Virus record (IMG/VR): IMGVR_UViG_2554235185_000012 | Length of the DNA: 41,213 nt | Origin: a virus | Taxonomy: Duplodnaviria; Heunggongvirae; Uroviricota; Caudoviricetes | Reading direction: 5' to 3' (one strand) | In this document: piece by piece, positions 14,072 to 22,957 of the stretch | Position numbering within the stretch: the first letter of the stretch is position 1 | Layout of the letters: the number at the start of each line of letters is the position of its first letter | Notes under the pieces: generated by a model | What the model saw: the letters and a program-made list of their open reading frames with translations, nothing else | What the model was told of the DNA's origin: nothing | Database searches by the model: none | Translations under genes and position numbers: made by a program

Positions 14072-14650
14072 ATGATTAATCCTTCTGAAATTGGCAAAAC
14101 GGGTGAAATGGTTCGTCTTCGTACTCTGGAAAGTATCTGGGTTCAGGGTAAGCTCCGCATGTGGGGACGCTGGTCTTATATCGGCGGTGGTAGTGGTGGG
14201 AACATGTTTAACCAGCTACTGGCATCTGGAAAAATTACCAAAACGGCAATTAAAGAAGCGCTACGCCGGATGAAAAAAGCGGGTATCAGCAAACCAGAGC
14301 TGGAAGCGTTTTTCAAAGAGATTCAGGAAGGGCAGAATAAAAGCGGTCTGGCGTTCTGTACCGATGAGGAAGCGCTGACCATCAACGCTGTACTCAGCGA
14401 TGTCCTTGTGCAGTCAGGACATAAGAATTTATACGCTCTTATTGAAGATCGTTATATCAAACGCCTTAGCAAAAAGGCAATGGCAAGAGACCTAAATAAA
14501 AAGCATCCTGAATGGTGTTTGCGAACCTGTGAAAGCCGGATTGATGTTTGGCTAAATGTAGCAGAATCGATGCTATACAAGCCAATGTGTGATGCATTTG
14601 GCACAAATGGCGACAGATTCCGCTTGAATAGTTGCGCGGAAAGTGCTTGA
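14072..14650 (+). CDS. Putative late-gene antiterminator (Q-like)
   Basis: Last rightward early gene before the lysis cassette; followed by a hairpin terminator; assignment is mainly positional. Confidence 0.4.
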   Translation: MINPSEIGKTGEMVRLRTLESIWVQGKLRMWGRWSYIGGGSGGNMFNQLLASGKITKTAIKEALRRMKKAGISKPELEAFFKEIQEGQNKSGLAFCTDEEALTINAVLSDVLVQSGHKNLYALIEDRYIKRLSKKAMARDLNKKHPEWCLRTCESRIDVWLNVAESMLYKPMCDAFGTNGDRFRLNSCAESA

Positions 14651-14731: not shown

Positions 14732-15211
14732 CTAGAGCAGACCTATAGCGCCACCGGCAATAGCAGTAAGTAAAGGATGTTCTGCTAACTTTCTTAGCAG
14801 CCCCTTTGCTTCTTCTTTCTGCTGTGGCGTACCCTGAGAGCTATTTATTAAGTTATTCAGCGTCTCGATGCTATTGGTAATCTCCTGACGGTTATGATCT
14901 CCAATCTGTACATTCCCTCCGTGAATGTTGATTTGCTGAGAAGAAATAGTTGGTTGTATCTTTTTGGGGCCAACCTTGAGTTGGAAGTGTGGGCCAAAAC
15001 CGCCAATGCTAGTGTCGTAAAAATTAGCTTTATAAATTTCTTTATGTTCTTCCTTACCGTTTGGAAGGAGTCGAACAACAGTATCCCCGTCATCGATGTC
15101 GGCCATTTGGTCGTTTACGATAATTGTATCACCTGCAAACTTGGCCTTATACGGGCCGCATCTGCTGCCATCACGTTTTAAGATGTAGGCATCGTCTTTA
15201 GCTGTAAACAT
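14732..15211 (-). CDS. Orphan cargo protein (159 aa), antisense between Q and holin; function unknown
   Basis: AGGAGT Shine-Dalgarno 5 nt before the ATG; AT-rich; hydrophobic C-terminal tail LLTAIAGGAIGLL; terminators on both sides. Confidence 0.6.
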   Translation of the reverse strand: MFTAKDDAYILKRDGSRCGPYKAKFAGDTIIVNDQMADIDDGDTVVRLLPNGKEEHKEIYKANFYDTSIGGFGPHFQLKVGPKKIQPTISSQQINIHGGNVQIGDHNRQEITNSIETLNNLINSSQGTPQQKEEAKGLLRKLAEHPLLTAIAGGAIGLL

Positions 15212-15463: not shown

Positions 15464-15805
15464 ATGAAAATGCATAACGATCCTCATTCCTGGCCTGACT
15501 TACTTGAATTGTTTCAGAGCTGGTGGCGTGGAGACACACCGCTGGGCGCAGTGATTATGTCGATTGTTATGGCTGGTTTACGTATTGCCTATTTTGGCGG
15601 TGGTGGTGGCTGGAAGCGAAAAACACTCGAAATTCTACTCTGTGGCGCTCTGACGCTGACTTTTGCATCCGCTCTTGAGTATGTCGGATGGCCTAAATCA
15701 CTATCTGTTGCCATTGGTGGTGGAGTGGGGCTGATCGGTGTCGATGCTATTCGTGGGGCTGCAATGCGAGTAATCGGTAACAAATTTGGTAGCTCGAAGG
15801 AGTAA
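15464..15805 (+). CDS. Holin (three predicted TM segments, MKM dual-start motif)
   Basis: GGAGGTGA Shine-Dalgarno; three hydrophobic segments; immediately precedes the endolysin. Confidence 0.8.
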   Translation: MKMHNDPHSWPDLLELFQSWWRGDTPLGAVIMSIVMAGLRIAYFGGGGGWKRKTLEILLCGALTLTFASALEYVGWPKSLSVAIGGGVGLIGVDAIRGAAMRVIGNKFGSSKE

Positions 15806-16661: not shown

Positions 16662-16803
16662 AACGCCTTATCCTGACATTCCGGATAATATGACATGGGG
16701 TAATAGTCTTAATTTAAATGTCAGTCTGCTATCGGCACTTGGCCAGTGCAATCGGGATAAGGCTGATATCAGGCAGGCTGAGAAAAAAAGAGCGGGCTTC
16801 TAA
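16546..16803 (+). CDS. o-spanin (Rz1-like lipoprotein), overlapped architecture
   Basis: Lipobox LLSGC, Pro-rich mature region; begins inside Rz in another frame and extends past the Rz stop. Confidence 0.6.
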   Translation: MMIVLQALCLLPLLSGCGSTRTVYVSIPVVPLPATLTAETPYPDIPDNMTWGNSLNLNVSLLSALGQCNRDKADIRQAEKKRAGF

Positions 16804-16809
16804 GCCCGC
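16782..16809 (-). terminator. Rho-independent terminator for the minus-strand cargo operon
   Basis: On the minus strand GCGGGCTTAGAAGCCCGC hairpin followed by TCTTTTTTT; 22 nt downstream of the ClpP-like gene stop. Confidence 0.6.
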
Positions 16810-16830
16810 ATTATGGTGAATATTATGATT

Positions 16831-17391
16831 TTAAAGTACCCACCAGCGGATCGATTCCGTGGGTATGGTTGCAGCCTCGACTTGATGAACAATTCCCAAC
16901 TCGGAGGCCCTTCCGGGATGAAGGATGGTTGCCGAAGTGATCAAATCCTTCCAATCAGCAATCTCACTTGGATTTTTCTTTTTTGTTTCAATATCCATGA
17001 TTTGAATAAATCGATTTAGATCGTCATCGAGGCATGAAGCCCATTCTCTCAATCGTAGGTGATCTGCGCTGGGTGCGGCGAACCCCCAATGCAGTGGGTG
17101 AAGAAGGAAGCGAGAAAGTGGGTTGGCAGTTCGCACTTCTCCAGCCATATAGATCACGTTTGCGATTGATTCAACATTACTGAGGTTATGCGTAGTAACC
17201 TTTACACCAAGTGACTTTAAAAAATTGTAAGCAGTAAAGCCTGAAACTGTATCTCCACCTTTGCTGGAAATATAGAGCTTAATTTCTGTTGCTGGTTGAT
17301 TAGTATTTGAAACTGCTTTTAAGCAGACATCCATCAGATTAGTTACAGAGGCAACTGTAACATCTGTCAAAAAATGTACCGTATGGATCAT
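16831..17391 (-). CDS. ClpP-fold serine protease-like protein (Ser/His retained), cargo gene
   Basis: Aligns by eye to ClpP: ISSKGGDTVSG vs INSPGGVITAG, VESIA vs AASMG (Ser75), RFLLHPL vs RVMIHQPL (His98); GAGGAG Shine-Dalgarno; AT-rich. Confidence 0.7.
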   Translation of the reverse strand: MIHTVHFLTDVTVASVTNLMDVCLKAVSNTNQPATEIKLYISSKGGDTVSGFTAYNFLKSLGVKVTTHNLSNVESIANVIYMAGEVRTANPLSRFLLHPLHWGFAAPSADHLRLREWASCLDDDLNRFIQIMDIETKKKNPSEIADWKDLITSATILHPGRASELGIVHQVEAATIPTESIRWWVL

Positions 17392-17469
17392 TTTTACTCC
17401 TCAATGGCAGGTCGCTAATGCAACAGGAAATGCAAATAATCGAATGTTATTAGAGCATCAAAGTAGAGC

Positions 17470-18018
17470 CTAGCTCTGTGGCGTGCTTAAGCATTTTGCT
17501 TCGTAATGTACCCTCATGGAAAACATAGCGAATAACATAATGAGCTTATCGCGTAAGCTTGTAGAGGATCCCGTGAAACTTACAACCCTAGTTTCTGCTC
17601 CGTAAACCCCAAGCTTAAAATCTCTAATGGGGGTCAAGCTATCAGGGTAACCGTGCTCCATTAGACTTGTTAAGGAGTCAATCTCACTGTTAGTGATGTC
17701 AGAGTTGTTAATTTGATGTGAACGTTTGTTTCTGAAGTTGTTGAACCTTCGAATAAATTTGTTTAGCTCTGAGCTCATCCCATAGTTCATCGCAAGCTGA
17801 GCTTTAATGGCAAAATCCATGTTGATATTTTCGCCAAAACCGCTGAAGAAATCCCTGTTACCAGAGGCACAGATAATCCAAGCTTCCAAGATTTGTTCAA
17901 TCAAAAGGTGAGTGCGGAGATAGATACCAATGTCATCTTGGGACCGAACTATAGTCATTATTCTATCGGGTTGATGGGATGCTAAAGTCAACTCTTCAAA
18001 ATGAGTAAAATCAAACAT
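17470..18018 (-). CDS. Hypothetical protein with RNxxxH (HEPN-like) motif, first gene of the cargo operon
   Basis: AAGGA Shine-Dalgarno; motif F95-R96-N97-K98-R99-S100-H101 fits the HEPN Rx4-6H pattern; AT-rich. Confidence 0.55.
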   Translation of the reverse strand: MFDFTHFEELTLASHQPDRIMTIVRSQDDIGIYLRTHLLIEQILEAWIICASGNRDFFSGFGENINMDFAIKAQLAMNYGMSSELNKFIRRFNNFRNKRSHQINNSDITNSEIDSLTSLMEHGYPDSLTPIRDFKLGVYGAETRVVSFTGSSTSLRDKLIMLFAMFSMRVHYEAKCLSTPQS

Positions 18019-18193
18019 ATTGATTCCTTGTAGAGGCTATTTTGTTGCTAATATCTTGTAAATTTGAACGTTTACTATCGATTTGTCTAACAAAAAAATC
18101 CTGAGGTTTTTATGGCAAAACCGTAGTGGAATACGCTTCGATTCTGAAAAGGATGCCACATATCGCACGTGAACCAACCAAGAGTATTATGCA

Positions 18194-18544
18194 ATGCCCT
18201 CACGAACCCCAAAAGCCTGCCGTGTTCGCGGCTGCCGCTCTACAACCACAGACCCTTCAGGCTACTGCGAAAGCCACAAAAGCGAAGGCTGGAAGCAATA
18301 CAAACCTGGACAATCCCGTCATCAGCGCGGCTACGGTTCGAAGTGGGACAGTATCCGCGCGCGTGTCCTGAAGCGTGACAAAGGCCTGTGTCAGTTATGT
18401 CTGCGTGCTGGTGTGGTGCGTGAGGCGAAGACCGTTGACCACATCATCCCTAAATCGCATGGCGGCACTGATGTCGACAGTAATCTGCAGAGTTTGTGCT
18501 GGCCGTGTCATAAGGCGAAGACGGCCCGTGAACGGTTGAAGTGA
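18194..18544 (+). CDS. HNH endonuclease (terminase-associated)
   Basis: Cys pairs (CRVRGC, CQLC, CWPCH) and DHIIPKSHGG HNH motif; directly upstream of the terminase small subunit. Confidence 0.8.
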   Translation: MPSRTPKACRVRGCRSTTTDPSGYCESHKSEGWKQYKPGQSRHQRGYGSKWDSIRARVLKRDKGLCQLCLRAGVVREAKTVDHIIPKSHGGTDVDSNLQSLCWPCHKAKTARERLK

Positions 18545-21088: not shown

Positions 21089-22329
21089 TGTTCTTTTCGG
21101 GATTATTTCAACGAAAAAGTGACGCACCGGTGACCACGCCAGCAGAGCTGGCGGATGTTATCGGGTTGTCCTACGACACCTATACCGGAAAGCAGATCAG
21201 CAGCCAGCGGGCCATGCGACTGACGGCGGTTTTTTCCTGTGTCAGGGTGCTGGCGGAGTCGGTCGGGATGTTGCCCTGCAACCTGTATCACCTGAACGGC
21301 AGTCTGAAGCAGAGAGCCGCTGGCGAACGTCTGCATAAGCTGATCTCCACGCATCCCAATGGCTATATGACGCCGCAGGAGTTCTGGGAGCTGGTGGTCA
21401 CCTGTCTGTGCCTGCGGGGAAACTTTTACGCCTACAAAGTGAAAGCATTTGGCGAAGTGGCTGAACTGCTGCCCGTCGATCCCGGCTGTGTGGTACCGAA
21501 GCTTAACAGTAGCTGGGAGCCGGTCTATCAGGTCACATTCCCGGATGGCTCCACGGATGTACTGAGCCAGGAGGATATCTGGCATGTGCGCACGCTGACG
21601 CTGGACGGACTGGTGGGGCTGAATCCCATCGCCTATGCCCGCGAGGCAATATCGCTGGCGGCAGCGACCGAAGAGCACGGGGCCAGACTGTTTAGCAATG
21701 GCGCGGTGACGTCGGGTGTGTTGCGTACAGAGCAGACGCTGTCAGATCAGGCTTATGAGCGCCTGAAGAAAGATTTTGAGGAGCGTCACACCGGGCTTGG
21801 CAATGCTCACCGCCCGATGATCCTTGAGATGGGGCTGGACTGGAAGTCGATGGCGCTGAACGCCGAGGACAGCCAGTTCCTGGAAACCCGCAAGTTTCAG
21901 CTTGAAGAAATCTGTCGTCTGTTCCGGGTGCCGTTGCACATGGTGCAGAACACCGATCGCGCCACCTTCAACAATATCGAAGAGCTGGGGCTGGGATTTA
22001 TCAACTATTCACTGGTGCCGTATCTGACCCGCATCGAACAGCGGATCAACACCGGACTGGTACGAAAAAGTAAGCAGGGCGTTTATTACGCCAAATTTAA
22101 CGCCGGGGCGTTACTGCGCGGGGATATGAAGTCCCGTTTTGAAGCCTACGCCACCGGGATCAACTGGGGAATTTACTCTCCCAATGACTGCCGCGACCTG
22201 GAAGATATGAATCCACGACCCGGTGGTGATGTCTATCTCACACCGATGAACATGACCACGAAACCCTCCGATGGCAGTAAAGCCGGTAAGCAGAAGGATA
22301 ACGCCAATGCAGACGAAACAACGTCTTGA
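21088..22329 (+). CDS. Portal protein (HK97-type)
   Basis: 413 aa directly after terminase; size and order. Confidence 0.8.
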   Translation: MFFSGLFQRKSDAPVTTPAELADVIGLSYDTYTGKQISSQRAMRLTAVFSCVRVLAESVGMLPCNLYHLNGSLKQRAAGERLHKLISTHPNGYMTPQEFWELVVTCLCLRGNFYAYKVKAFGEVAELLPVDPGCVVPKLNSSWEPVYQVTFPDGSTDVLSQEDIWHVRTLTLDGLVGLNPIAYAREAISLAAATEEHGARLFSNGAVTSGVLRTEQTLSDQAYERLKKDFEERHTGLGNAHRPMILEMGLDWKSMALNAEDSQFLETRKFQLEEICRLFRVPLHMVQNTDRATFNNIEELGLGFINYSLVPYLTRIEQRINTGLVRKSKQGVYYAKFNAGALLRGDMKSRFEAYATGINWGIYSPNDCRDLEDMNPRPGGDVYLTPMNMTTKPSDGSKAGKQKDNANADETTS

Positions 22330-22957
22330 TGTACCGCTGAGTCTGAAATCTGTCAGTGACTCCGGTGAGTTTGAAGGGTATGGCTCCGTCTTTGGTGTAA
22401 AGGACAGCCACGATGATGTGGTGATGTCCGGGGCATTTGCTGCTTCCCTGCGGGCGTGGAGTGACAGAAAAGCGTTACCTGCGCTGCTCTGGCAGCACCG
22501 CATGGATGAACCCATCGGTGTTTACACCGAAATGAAGGAAGACGATGTCGGGCTTTACGTCAGGGGACGGTTGCTTATTGATGATGATCCCCTCGCAAAA
22601 CGCGCACATGCACACATGAAGGCCGGTTCGTTAACCGGCCTTTCTATTGGGTACGTCCTGAAAGACTGGGAATACGACCGGAGCAAAGAAGCCTTTCTGC
22701 TGAAAGAAATCGACCTCTGGGAAGTCAGCCTGGTGACGTTCCCGTCTAACGACGAGGCGCGGATCAGCGACGTCAAGAACGCACTGGCCCGCGGGGAAAT
22801 CCCCGAACAGAAAAAAATCGAAAGAGTCCTGCGTGATGTCGGACTCTCCCGTACCCAGGCCAAAGCATTCATGGCCGGGGGCTATGGCGCACTGTCCCTG
22901 CGCGACGCTGAGGATGTGGGCTCTGCACTGAATGCACTGAAAAATCTGAACTTCTAA
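22307..22957 (+). CDS. Prohead maturation protease (HK97 S78 type)
   Basis: Positioned between portal and major capsid; AAGGA Shine-Dalgarno before ATG 22307. Confidence 0.75.
   Translation: MQTKQRLDVPLSLKSVSDSGEFEGYGSVFGVKDSHDDVVMSGAFAASLRAWSDRKALPALLWQHRMDEPIGVYTEMKEDDVGLYVRGRLLIDDDPLAKRAHAHMKAGSLTGLSIGYVLKDWEYDRSKEAFLLKEIDLWEVSLVTFPSNDEARISDVKNALARGEIPEQKKIERVLRDVGLSRTQAKAFMAGGYGALSLRDAEDVGSALNALKNLNF

Follow-up and report, generated by a model that had tools for sequence, protein, structure and literature searches.

Two neighbouring cargo genes of an Escherichia coli prophage: a stand-alone HEPN protein related to HepS and a truncated ClpP paralogue of the PpClpP1 type

The viral genome IMGVR_UViG_2554235185_000012 (41,213 nucleotides, hereafter the window) carries two genes, here called A and B, which lie antisense between the Rz/Rz1 lysis genes and the HNH/terminase genes of a contractile-tailed Escherichia coli prophage (Table 1). 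We take this antisense site after Rz/Rz1 to correspond to the bor position on the map of phage lambda. The initial annotation of the window had described two AT-rich minus-strand genes at this position, with Shine-Dalgarno (SD) sites and a dedicated terminator, as cargo in a bor-like slot, and we recovered each of these features as well as the lysogenic-conversion-type setting. An SD-like site lies 7 nt 5′ of either start codon. The two genes are 78 nt apart on the same strand, and one terminator was called, 3′ of B, with none in between. The GC content is 38-41% over positions 17000-18200, against 55-58% in the neighbouring HNH/terminase genes. Both proteins have many full-length homologues (E < 1e-50) and, judged by this conservation, are not the products of chance open reading frames (ORFs).

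Table 1. Features of the A and B locus (positions in the window; aa, amino acids).
Feature	Position	Strand	Description
Gene A	17470..18018	-	182 aa; predicted stand-alone HEPN protein; RefSeq WP_000459434, label 'hypothetical protein'
Gene B	16831..17391	-	186 aa; predicted N-terminally truncated ClpP paralogue, PpClpP1-like; RefSeq WP_000582030
HEPN Rx4H active-site motif of A, codons R96-N97-K98-R99-S100-H101	17716..17733	-	Read from the sequence
Ser75 and His98 codons of gene B	17169..17167 (Ser75); 17100..17098 (His98)	-	Ala154 at the ClpP triad Asp position
A-linked upstream region	18019..18129	-	SD AAGGAA; putative own promoter; DNA homology with A-only loci
A cassette/B cassette junction	17451..17451	.	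Edges of the DNA homology blocks
B-linked leader	17392..17450	-	SD GAGGAG; conserved TGCATTA(T/G) element; possible own promoter
Intrinsic terminator after B	16782..16809	-	7-bp stem (6 GC pairs), 4-nt loop, T-run; hairpin 16809..16792

From position 15486 to 37439, the window is 98% identical to a prophage locus of E. coli strain M7424, where the prophage adjoins ybhC. In the RefSeq annotation of that strain, the genes for holin, lysozyme, DUF2570 (Rz) and LysC (Rz1) are followed by two minus-strand genes, labelled 'ATP-dependent Clp protease proteolytic subunit' and 'hypothetical protein', and then by those for HNH endonuclease, P27-type small terminase, large terminase, portal, HK97 prohead protease, capsid, tail sheath, tube and baseplate. 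Given this identity, both the HK97-type protease, at 22307..22957, and the contractile tail can be transferred to the window; the earlier suggestion that capsid maturation is served by this separate protease and not by B is in agreement with the transferred annotation. Of 5,426 complete E. coli genomes, 15 contained DNA of the A and B locus (98.7-100% identity), in all cases on the chromosome, while a megablast search of the locus against 50,697 phage genomes gave zero matches.

Protein A belongs to phrog_5483, a family with no assigned function. Its match to the Pfam family Abi_2 (PF07751) is sub-threshold (14.6 bits, with a gathering cut-off of 25.6) and ends at the RNxxxH motif. By exhaustive profile search, A falls in a superfamily of ~180-aa stand-alone proteins, for which 191 cluster representatives scored E ≤ 1e-3; members of this superfamily weakly match the HEPN Pfam families RiboL-PSP, Abi_2, Cthe2314, Apea, HepT and Csm6; in PADLOC, distant relatives of A have weak matches to HEPN-containing models only. 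R96, N97, R99 and H101 are invariant in 16 close homologues of A. In the alignment of 69 distant superfamily members, the only invariant residues are E41, N97 and H101, with R96, H37 and K72 conserved in at least 90%, and on these alignments the invariants are the HEPN signature. The AlphaFold model of A (predicted local distance difference test score, pLDDT, 88; predicted template-modelling score, pTM, 0.86) shows the two hallmarks of the HEPN superfamily, namely the helical HEPN fold and an Rx4-6H motif where the last core helix begins. This bears out the earlier suggestion of a HEPN-like protein, and the RNxxxH motif of A is of the catalytic type.

HepS was the top structural match of A and its sole match detectable by sequence. 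The superfamily profile of A matches the HepS sequence at E 8.6e-14 with the RNxxAH residues aligned, and its remaining PDB matches under E 1 are to Csm6 HEPN domains only (0.0086 and 0.11). HepS (STM14_3211; PDB 9oij/9oik) is a single-protein abortive-infection system of the Salmonella prophage Gifsy-1 (Sargen et al., Nature 2026, PMC13043305). It forms a latent tetramer, which is opened by direct binding of a siphovirus J tail-tip peptide and then cuts tRNA anticodon loops via R100, N101 and H105; no partner is conserved among its homologues, which are often carried by prophages (PMC13043305). Gifsy-1 is itself a siphovirus and needs a J variant to escape self-targeting by HepS (PMC13043305). 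The motif of A aligns with R100-N101-x3-H105 of HepS (residue roles from PMC13043305), and A is also a single-domain protein of <250 aa, partnerless and prophage-borne. From these comparisons, A joins the HepS ('HEPN Solo') family as a distant new member.

A and HepS also differ. A is ~30 aa shorter, and its termini align unconvincingly with the N- and C-terminal trigger-binding strands of HepS. While A sits at the lysis-terminase junction, HepS lies in the replication/antirepressor region of Gifsy-1, and the prophage carrying A is contractile-tailed and has no lambda-J-type tip, in contrast to the siphovirus Gifsy-1. Were A to recognise siphovirus tail tips in the way of HepS, its own prophage would not be a target. 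The AbiD/AbiF-like proteins of Abi_2 (PF07751) offer a second comparison, as they too are single-gene HEPN abortive-infection proteins with a weak local match to A. However, Abi_2 proteins are larger, and A is not a member by the Pfam criterion.

To place both genes in their genomic settings, we retrieved the contexts of diverged A and B homologues and scanned GTDB (one genome per species) and IMG/VR with both family alignments; the retrieved loci carry L numbers below. Homologues of A at 84, 66, 57-59 and 53% identity are antisense and lie directly beside a small-terminase gene or in the interval from the lysis to the terminase genes, with no ClpP-like neighbour. The 84% homologue is from Citrobacter braakii and the 66% homologue from Enterobacter. 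In every diverged lineage A is solo, and all of its loci are on prophage or viral contigs. Phage phi80 (JX871397) encodes a member of the same A/HepS-like superfamily, PHI80_63 (L176 1172..1786; 34% identity to A, E 1e-11), which is antisense between rha/Rz and cos, in the same slot as A in the window.

Protein B matches the Pfam family CLP_protease above the cut-off (E 2e-12), from profile position 41 onward. It begins directly at strand 1 and is without the N-terminal axial loops and helix A, which are required for ClpX/ClpA docking and pore gating. In an hhalign alignment with E. coli ClpP, which starts after the axial-loop region, S75, H98 and A154 of B pair with S97, H122 and D171. The position of the triad residue Asp171 (mature E. 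coli numbering) is therefore occupied by Ala154 in B, and it is A, S or T in the B family. Across 24 B homologues, S75, H98, D110, H111, R113, E116, D124, W184 and V185 are invariant, among at least 30 invariant residues that include the C-terminal WWV and many surface residues. The ClpP fold with Ser75 and His98, first recognised by eye, is supported by the Pfam match, by Foldseek and by this invariance. All NCBIfam ClpP equivalog scores for B are far below their cut-offs.

B matched PDB entry 9UXT far better than any ClpP, at E 1.6e-32 with the single sequence (phmmer) and 5.7e-49 with the family profile. In Foldseek, the AlphaFold2 model of B (pLDDT 88) aligned to 9UXT with TM-scores of 0.87/0.89 and 36% identity, compared with ~0.75 for ClpPs. 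The structure 9UXT is PpClpP1 of Pseudomonas plecoglossicida, an N-terminally truncated core with a Ser73-His96-Pro 'triad' (Chen et al., PLoS Pathog 2026, PMC12900304). PpClpP1 forms a homotetradecamer with a 42.7 Å axial pore, and its peptidase activity, for which Ser and His are essential, is 13-fold below that of the canonical paralogue (PMC12900304). Alone it does not bind ClpX, whereas the hetero-tetradecamer of PpClpP1 and canonical ClpP binds ClpX and is more active; phage go unmentioned in that paper (PMC12900304). B shares with PpClpP1 a core of ~183-186 aa, the retained Ser and His and a non-acidic third residue, and on the strength of these alignments B belongs to a prophage-borne clade of PpClpP1-type truncated ClpP. 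The third triad position is Pro in PpClpP1 and Ala in B, and the tetradecamer, the lack of ClpX binding and the hybridisation with housekeeping ClpP were shown for PpClpP1 alone.

A further difference is that the Pseudomonas genes are chromosomal, while B is mobile prophage cargo. We considered whether PpClpP1 itself could be prophage cargo and rejected this, as its Pseudomonas context is metabolic and chromosomal. The PpClpP1-type genes of the Pseudomonas putida group (L172-L174 7001..7552) are flanked by DUF72, phosphatase and PLD genes on one side and a KGG stress protein gene on the other. Consequently, the truncated-ClpP family comprises a cellular clade and a mobile prophage clade. ClpP2 of P. 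aeruginosa is comparable as an additional ClpP subunit of non-canonical type that enters heterocomplexes and modulates ClpXP; according to two reports (PMC13056064, PMC12451819), it is a host-encoded regulator, whereas B is prophage-borne. Within the B family, the Klebsiella homologue (L008-L010 6001..6717, P0023) is annotated with 238 aa, of which 52 form an N-terminal extension found nowhere else in the family. Its DNA matches the window from the canonical ATG onward, and the start was probably mis-called in 206 member sequences.

B-type genes occur as solo cargo in at least five prophage positions. In Klebsiella a 79% homologue is antisense directly after LysC, and homologues of 53% lie in a P22-like Pectobacterium prophage, downstream of the immI mnt-like gene with a one-base overlap, and in Chromobacterium, between tail-fibre and lysis genes; a 50% homologue in Proteus sits beside the N antiterminator gene. 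In P22-like phages (Lederbergvirus) and prophage remnants, the B-type gene is co-directional with the mnt-like repressor gene of immI and begins on its final base (L175 3753..4537 in phiv205-1, L178 3338..4122 in E. coli SF-088 and L011 5747..6537 in Pectobacterium), which implies co-expression with this lysogeny-maintenance repressor. On the P22 map, sieA lies roughly at the slot of B downstream of mnt, and sieB-type genes lie beside N. A and B are comparable to lambda bor and P22 sieA and sieB as cargo presumably expressed in the lysogen from slots after Rz/Rz1 in antisense, beside mnt or beside N. The proteins, however, are unrelated, since Bor is a lipoprotein and SieA and SieB are membrane or Abi proteins; the slot logic alone is common to them.

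Distant (25-34% identity), stand-alone B-like genes were also found in metagenome-assembled genomes (MAGs) of uncultured bacteria (L053 4370..5908, L036 4289..5425 and L037 7042..8274). Their neighbours include AAA_15/AAA_21 (OLD/AbiEii-like) ATPase, HTH+Peptidase_M78 (ImmA/IrrE-like) or trypsin-like peptidase genes, reminiscent of conflict systems. We rejected the idea that these distant genes encode capsid proteases, given neighbours such as DnaK, a Na/H exchanger, HTH-M78, a trypsin-like peptidase and an AAA_15/21 ATPase.

Next, we asked whether A and B form a unit. Both gene families were located by tblastn in 171 loci, and the survey was repeated with slot markers on 178 loci. A and B were neighbours, with 82 nt separating the tblastn matches, in 100%-identical copies of this prophage and nowhere else in the survey. 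The A lineages at 84, 66, 59, 56, 53, 46, 39, 37 and 34% identity are all solo, without an adjacent B, as are, without an adjacent A, the B lineages at 96, 78, 70, 57, 54, 52, 50, 45 and 25-42%. By blastn against the complete E. coli genomes, A-type DNA was present in 15 and B-type DNA in 148, and 133 of these 148 genomes (B-type DNA at 60-80% identity) were without A-type DNA. Two such B-only contexts were inspected; in one the gene is antisense after LysC, and in the other it lies in the mnt-arc-ant immI region of a decayed P22-like prophage.

The DNA around the two genes is likewise divided. Two A-only loci (L019 and L064; 84% protein identity) match the window from 18129 to 17452 at 85% DNA identity, with homology ending on both sides, and a B-only locus (L099; 96%-identical protein) matches it from 17450 to 16466 at 87%. 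The leader at 17392..17450 is conserved in the B-only loci L099, L008 and L101. As the homology blocks abut at ~17451, inside the 78-nt intergenic stretch, each gene brings its own leader. The solo-B leader of L099 (5960..6000, against 17392..17420 of the window) has a 14-nt insertion that resembles a duplicated SD-containing segment (TTGAGGCATAAAATGAGGAAC), and this indel falls in the sole region able to hold B's own expression signals. In one other genome, IMGVR_UViG_3300011912_000003 (44.8 kb; L072, L115), an A homologue (59%) and a B homologue (69%) occur ~16 kb apart, with A at the terminase junction and B antisense in the baseplate cluster, between the Dit-like/hub and spike/Baseplate_J genes. 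This non-adjacent co-occurrence could be a coincidence or a hint of selection for both genes.

Given the solo distribution and the separate homology blocks, the apparent A-B operon reflects, on this comparative evidence, two autonomous cargo genes that were recently stacked in a hot spot. We consider it quite likely that the locus as a whole consists of two autonomous single-gene cargo genes, with A encoding a HepS-family HEPN RNase and B a gate-less ClpP core. The initial annotation had instead proposed a two-gene module of nuclease and protease, that is, an abortive-infection or toxin-type system. In such a dedicated system, the ClpP-like protease would regulate or activate the HEPN nuclease or be an effector beside it. 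The arrangement of the two genes, on one strand, 78 nt apart and with a single terminator after B, would suit such a module, and both proteins fit defence-like themes. We nevertheless regard it as very improbable, because the pairing is confined to one clonal prophage lineage and not conserved in the 178 loci or the 5,426 E. coli genomes, because a 96%-identical B occurs without A and an 84%-identical A without B, because the DNA homology breaks at 17451, and because HepS acts alone, with no conserved partners (PMC13043305). What does count against full autonomy is that, with no terminator in between, A and B could be co-transcribed and could have acquired a functional link within this lineage.

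The identity of B has its own competing explanation, namely a prohead or scaffold protease of the usual ClpP type, functionless in the lysogen and perhaps left over from another capsid module. The best PHROG match of B is indeed phrog_94, 'head maturation protease' (E 1.8e-25), its NCBIfam Clp_rel_HeadMat match reaches 51 bits, and one phage record labels a B homologue 'head maturation protease'. The phage head-maturation proteases (phrog_94, NCBIfam NF045542) have the same fold and profile similarity to B (E 1.8e-25 and 1.4e-13), but B is neither fused nor adjacent to scaffold, capsid or portal genes. In NCBIfam, B falls far short of the curated cut-offs (51 where 120 is required, and 51 where 475 is required), and its homologues are never beside portal or capsid genes, their neighbours being Rz1, mnt, N, baseplate or tail-fibre genes. 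B is also antisense to the structural operon of a prophage with its own HK97-type protease. Moreover, B is present in P22-like phages, which use no prohead protease, and its closest characterised relative is a cellular ClpP paralogue. The strong conservation of Ser, His and at least 30 invariant residues speaks against B being a decaying remnant, and we give the capsid-protease explanation almost no credence.

As A and B are antisense to the late operon, they are presumably expressed in the lysogen. For A, we hypothesize that the protein would be held in the lysogen as an inactive oligomer, most likely by analogy with HepS. A protein of an infecting or competing phage would then bind A directly and switch it on, and the paired RNxxxH sites of the activated protein would cut RNA (tRNA anticodon loops in the case of HepS), aborting the infection. 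The trigger probably differs from the lambda-J tail-tip peptide of HepS, since A is ~30 residues shorter and has no clear counterpart of the HepS trigger-binding termini. We infer the defence function, the oligomeric latency, the trigger and the RNA target of A from HepS. By this analogy, A is very probably an abortive-infection defence gene, and it is likely to be a solo HEPN RNase that stays latent until a phage protein activates it and then aborts infection in the manner of HepS. In this respect the abortive-infection idea of the initial annotation holds for A, through its relation to HepS, but not for a paired nuclease-protease module.

Several observations weigh against this proposal for A and against the reading of the locus as a whole. 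A is only ~20% identical to HepS, and a narrow-profile hhalign comparison of the two gave 66% probability over 51 columns only. The trigger-contact residues S13, D15, S202 and T203 of HepS are not conserved in A, and of the HepS interface residues F66, L83 and K78, which align with F58, Y79 and Q74 of A, the pair K78/Q74 is a mismatch; the latency and trigger mechanism of A may therefore differ from those of HepS. PADLOC-DB v2 (2023), which predates HepS, had no match for A or B at E ≤ 1. A consensus sigma-70 scan found no credible promoter 5′ of A or B, its sole matches being inside coding sequence, and the alignments of the two upstream regions showed conservation without clear -35/-10 elements. 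Since no promoter was found, the proposed expression in the lysogen follows from the orientation and the analogy with bor, sieA and mnt.

Alternatively, A could be a HEPN-fold protein without a defence role, either an MtlR/YggD-like regulator with no nuclease activity or the prophage-stabilising toxin of an unrecognised toxin-antitoxin pair. We judge this improbable, given that the RNxxxH catalytic motif is invariant across the superfamily, that MtlR-type regulators match A far more weakly (6-11% identity), and that HepS, the top match described above, is a proven defence nuclease. In addition, no conserved small neighbour that could serve as an antitoxin was seen in the A-only loci.

For B, we infer the assembly state, the hybridisation with E. 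coli ClpP and the biological role with much less certainty than the corresponding properties of A. By analogy with PpClpP1, B would form a wide-pore tetradecamer with weak peptidase activity. It would not itself dock ClpX but could co-assemble with the housekeeping ClpP of the host into hybrid 14-mers, and these would change ClpXP/ClpAP output in lysogens; in P22-like phages B would be expressed from the mnt transcript. The benefit might be that superinfecting phages have their ClpXP-labile proteins, for instance replication initiators of the lambda-O type, destroyed more quickly, or alternatively that antirepressor and repressor levels are controlled; superinfection exclusion, lysogeny control and host fitness are possible pay-offs. 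B would then represent an unrecognised class of prophage cargo, a gate-less ClpP subunit that infiltrates the host barrel and re-tunes ClpXP/ClpAP, an idea that we put forward tentatively and with more doubt than conviction. Against it stands the fact that hetero-oligomerisation of B with E. coli ClpP is an extrapolation from a chromosomal Pseudomonas protein, PpClpP1, of 36% identity. If true, such a role would amount to a new mechanism of superinfection exclusion or lysogeny control, and it would explain why B hops alone among the bor-, sieA-, sieB- and tail-module slots of many Enterobacterales prophages.

It is also conceivable that B acts on its own, as a homo-tetradecameric, unfoldase-independent peptidase that serves as a superinfection-exclusion or anti-phage effector by degrading an unfolded or injected phage protein. 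The sieA-, sieB- and bor-like slots of B would fit such an effector, as would the invariance of its C-terminal WWV and of many surface residues, and the PpClpP1 homo-14-mer, with its open pore of 42.7 Å, has measurable Ser/His-dependent peptidase activity (PMC12900304). On its own, however, PpClpP1 has 13-fold less activity than canonical ClpP, and the hybrid is the more active form (PMC12900304); we consider the solitary effector unlikely.

A adds a member to a kind of protein described with HepS in January 2026, and B places a ClpP subtype that was described in February 2026 in a new setting, that of prophage cargo. The earlier statement that the locus is not a named system has been overtaken for A by the publication of HepS, while it still applies to B as prophage cargo; literature searches for prophage- or phage-encoded ClpP cargo, or for ClpP in defence systems, returned nothing relevant. 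The HepS family now reaches into a distinct enterobacterial clade (phrog_5483), which includes the phi80 gene and is preferentially antisense at the lysis/terminase junction. This clade supplies natural variants for studying how solo HEPN sensors diversify their triggers, and PHI80_63 would be an easy experimental handle. The 'odd' ClpP paralogue type represented by PpClpP1, in turn, has a widespread prophage-borne clade in superinfection-exclusion slots, for which the routine labels 'ATP-dependent Clp protease proteolytic subunit' and 'head maturation protease' are both misleading. Should B subunits indeed form hybrids with the ClpP of the host, prophages would manipulate a protease that is central to the cell. 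The comparison also corrects a tempting over-interpretation, in that adjacency in one lineage does not make a system.

Finally, a second antisense cargo slot lies in the window between Q (14072..14650) and the holin gene (15464..15805), where a minus-strand ORF of 159 aa (14732..15211) has no Pfam match. In the M7424 prophage, which is otherwise 96-98% identical, the Q-holin slot holds a KAP-family NTPase gene (L001 17142..18473). We looked for this NTPase in the window and found it absent, with the different ORF in its place. Given these differing contents, the Q-holin junction is another hot spot of variable cargo in the lineage of this prophage.

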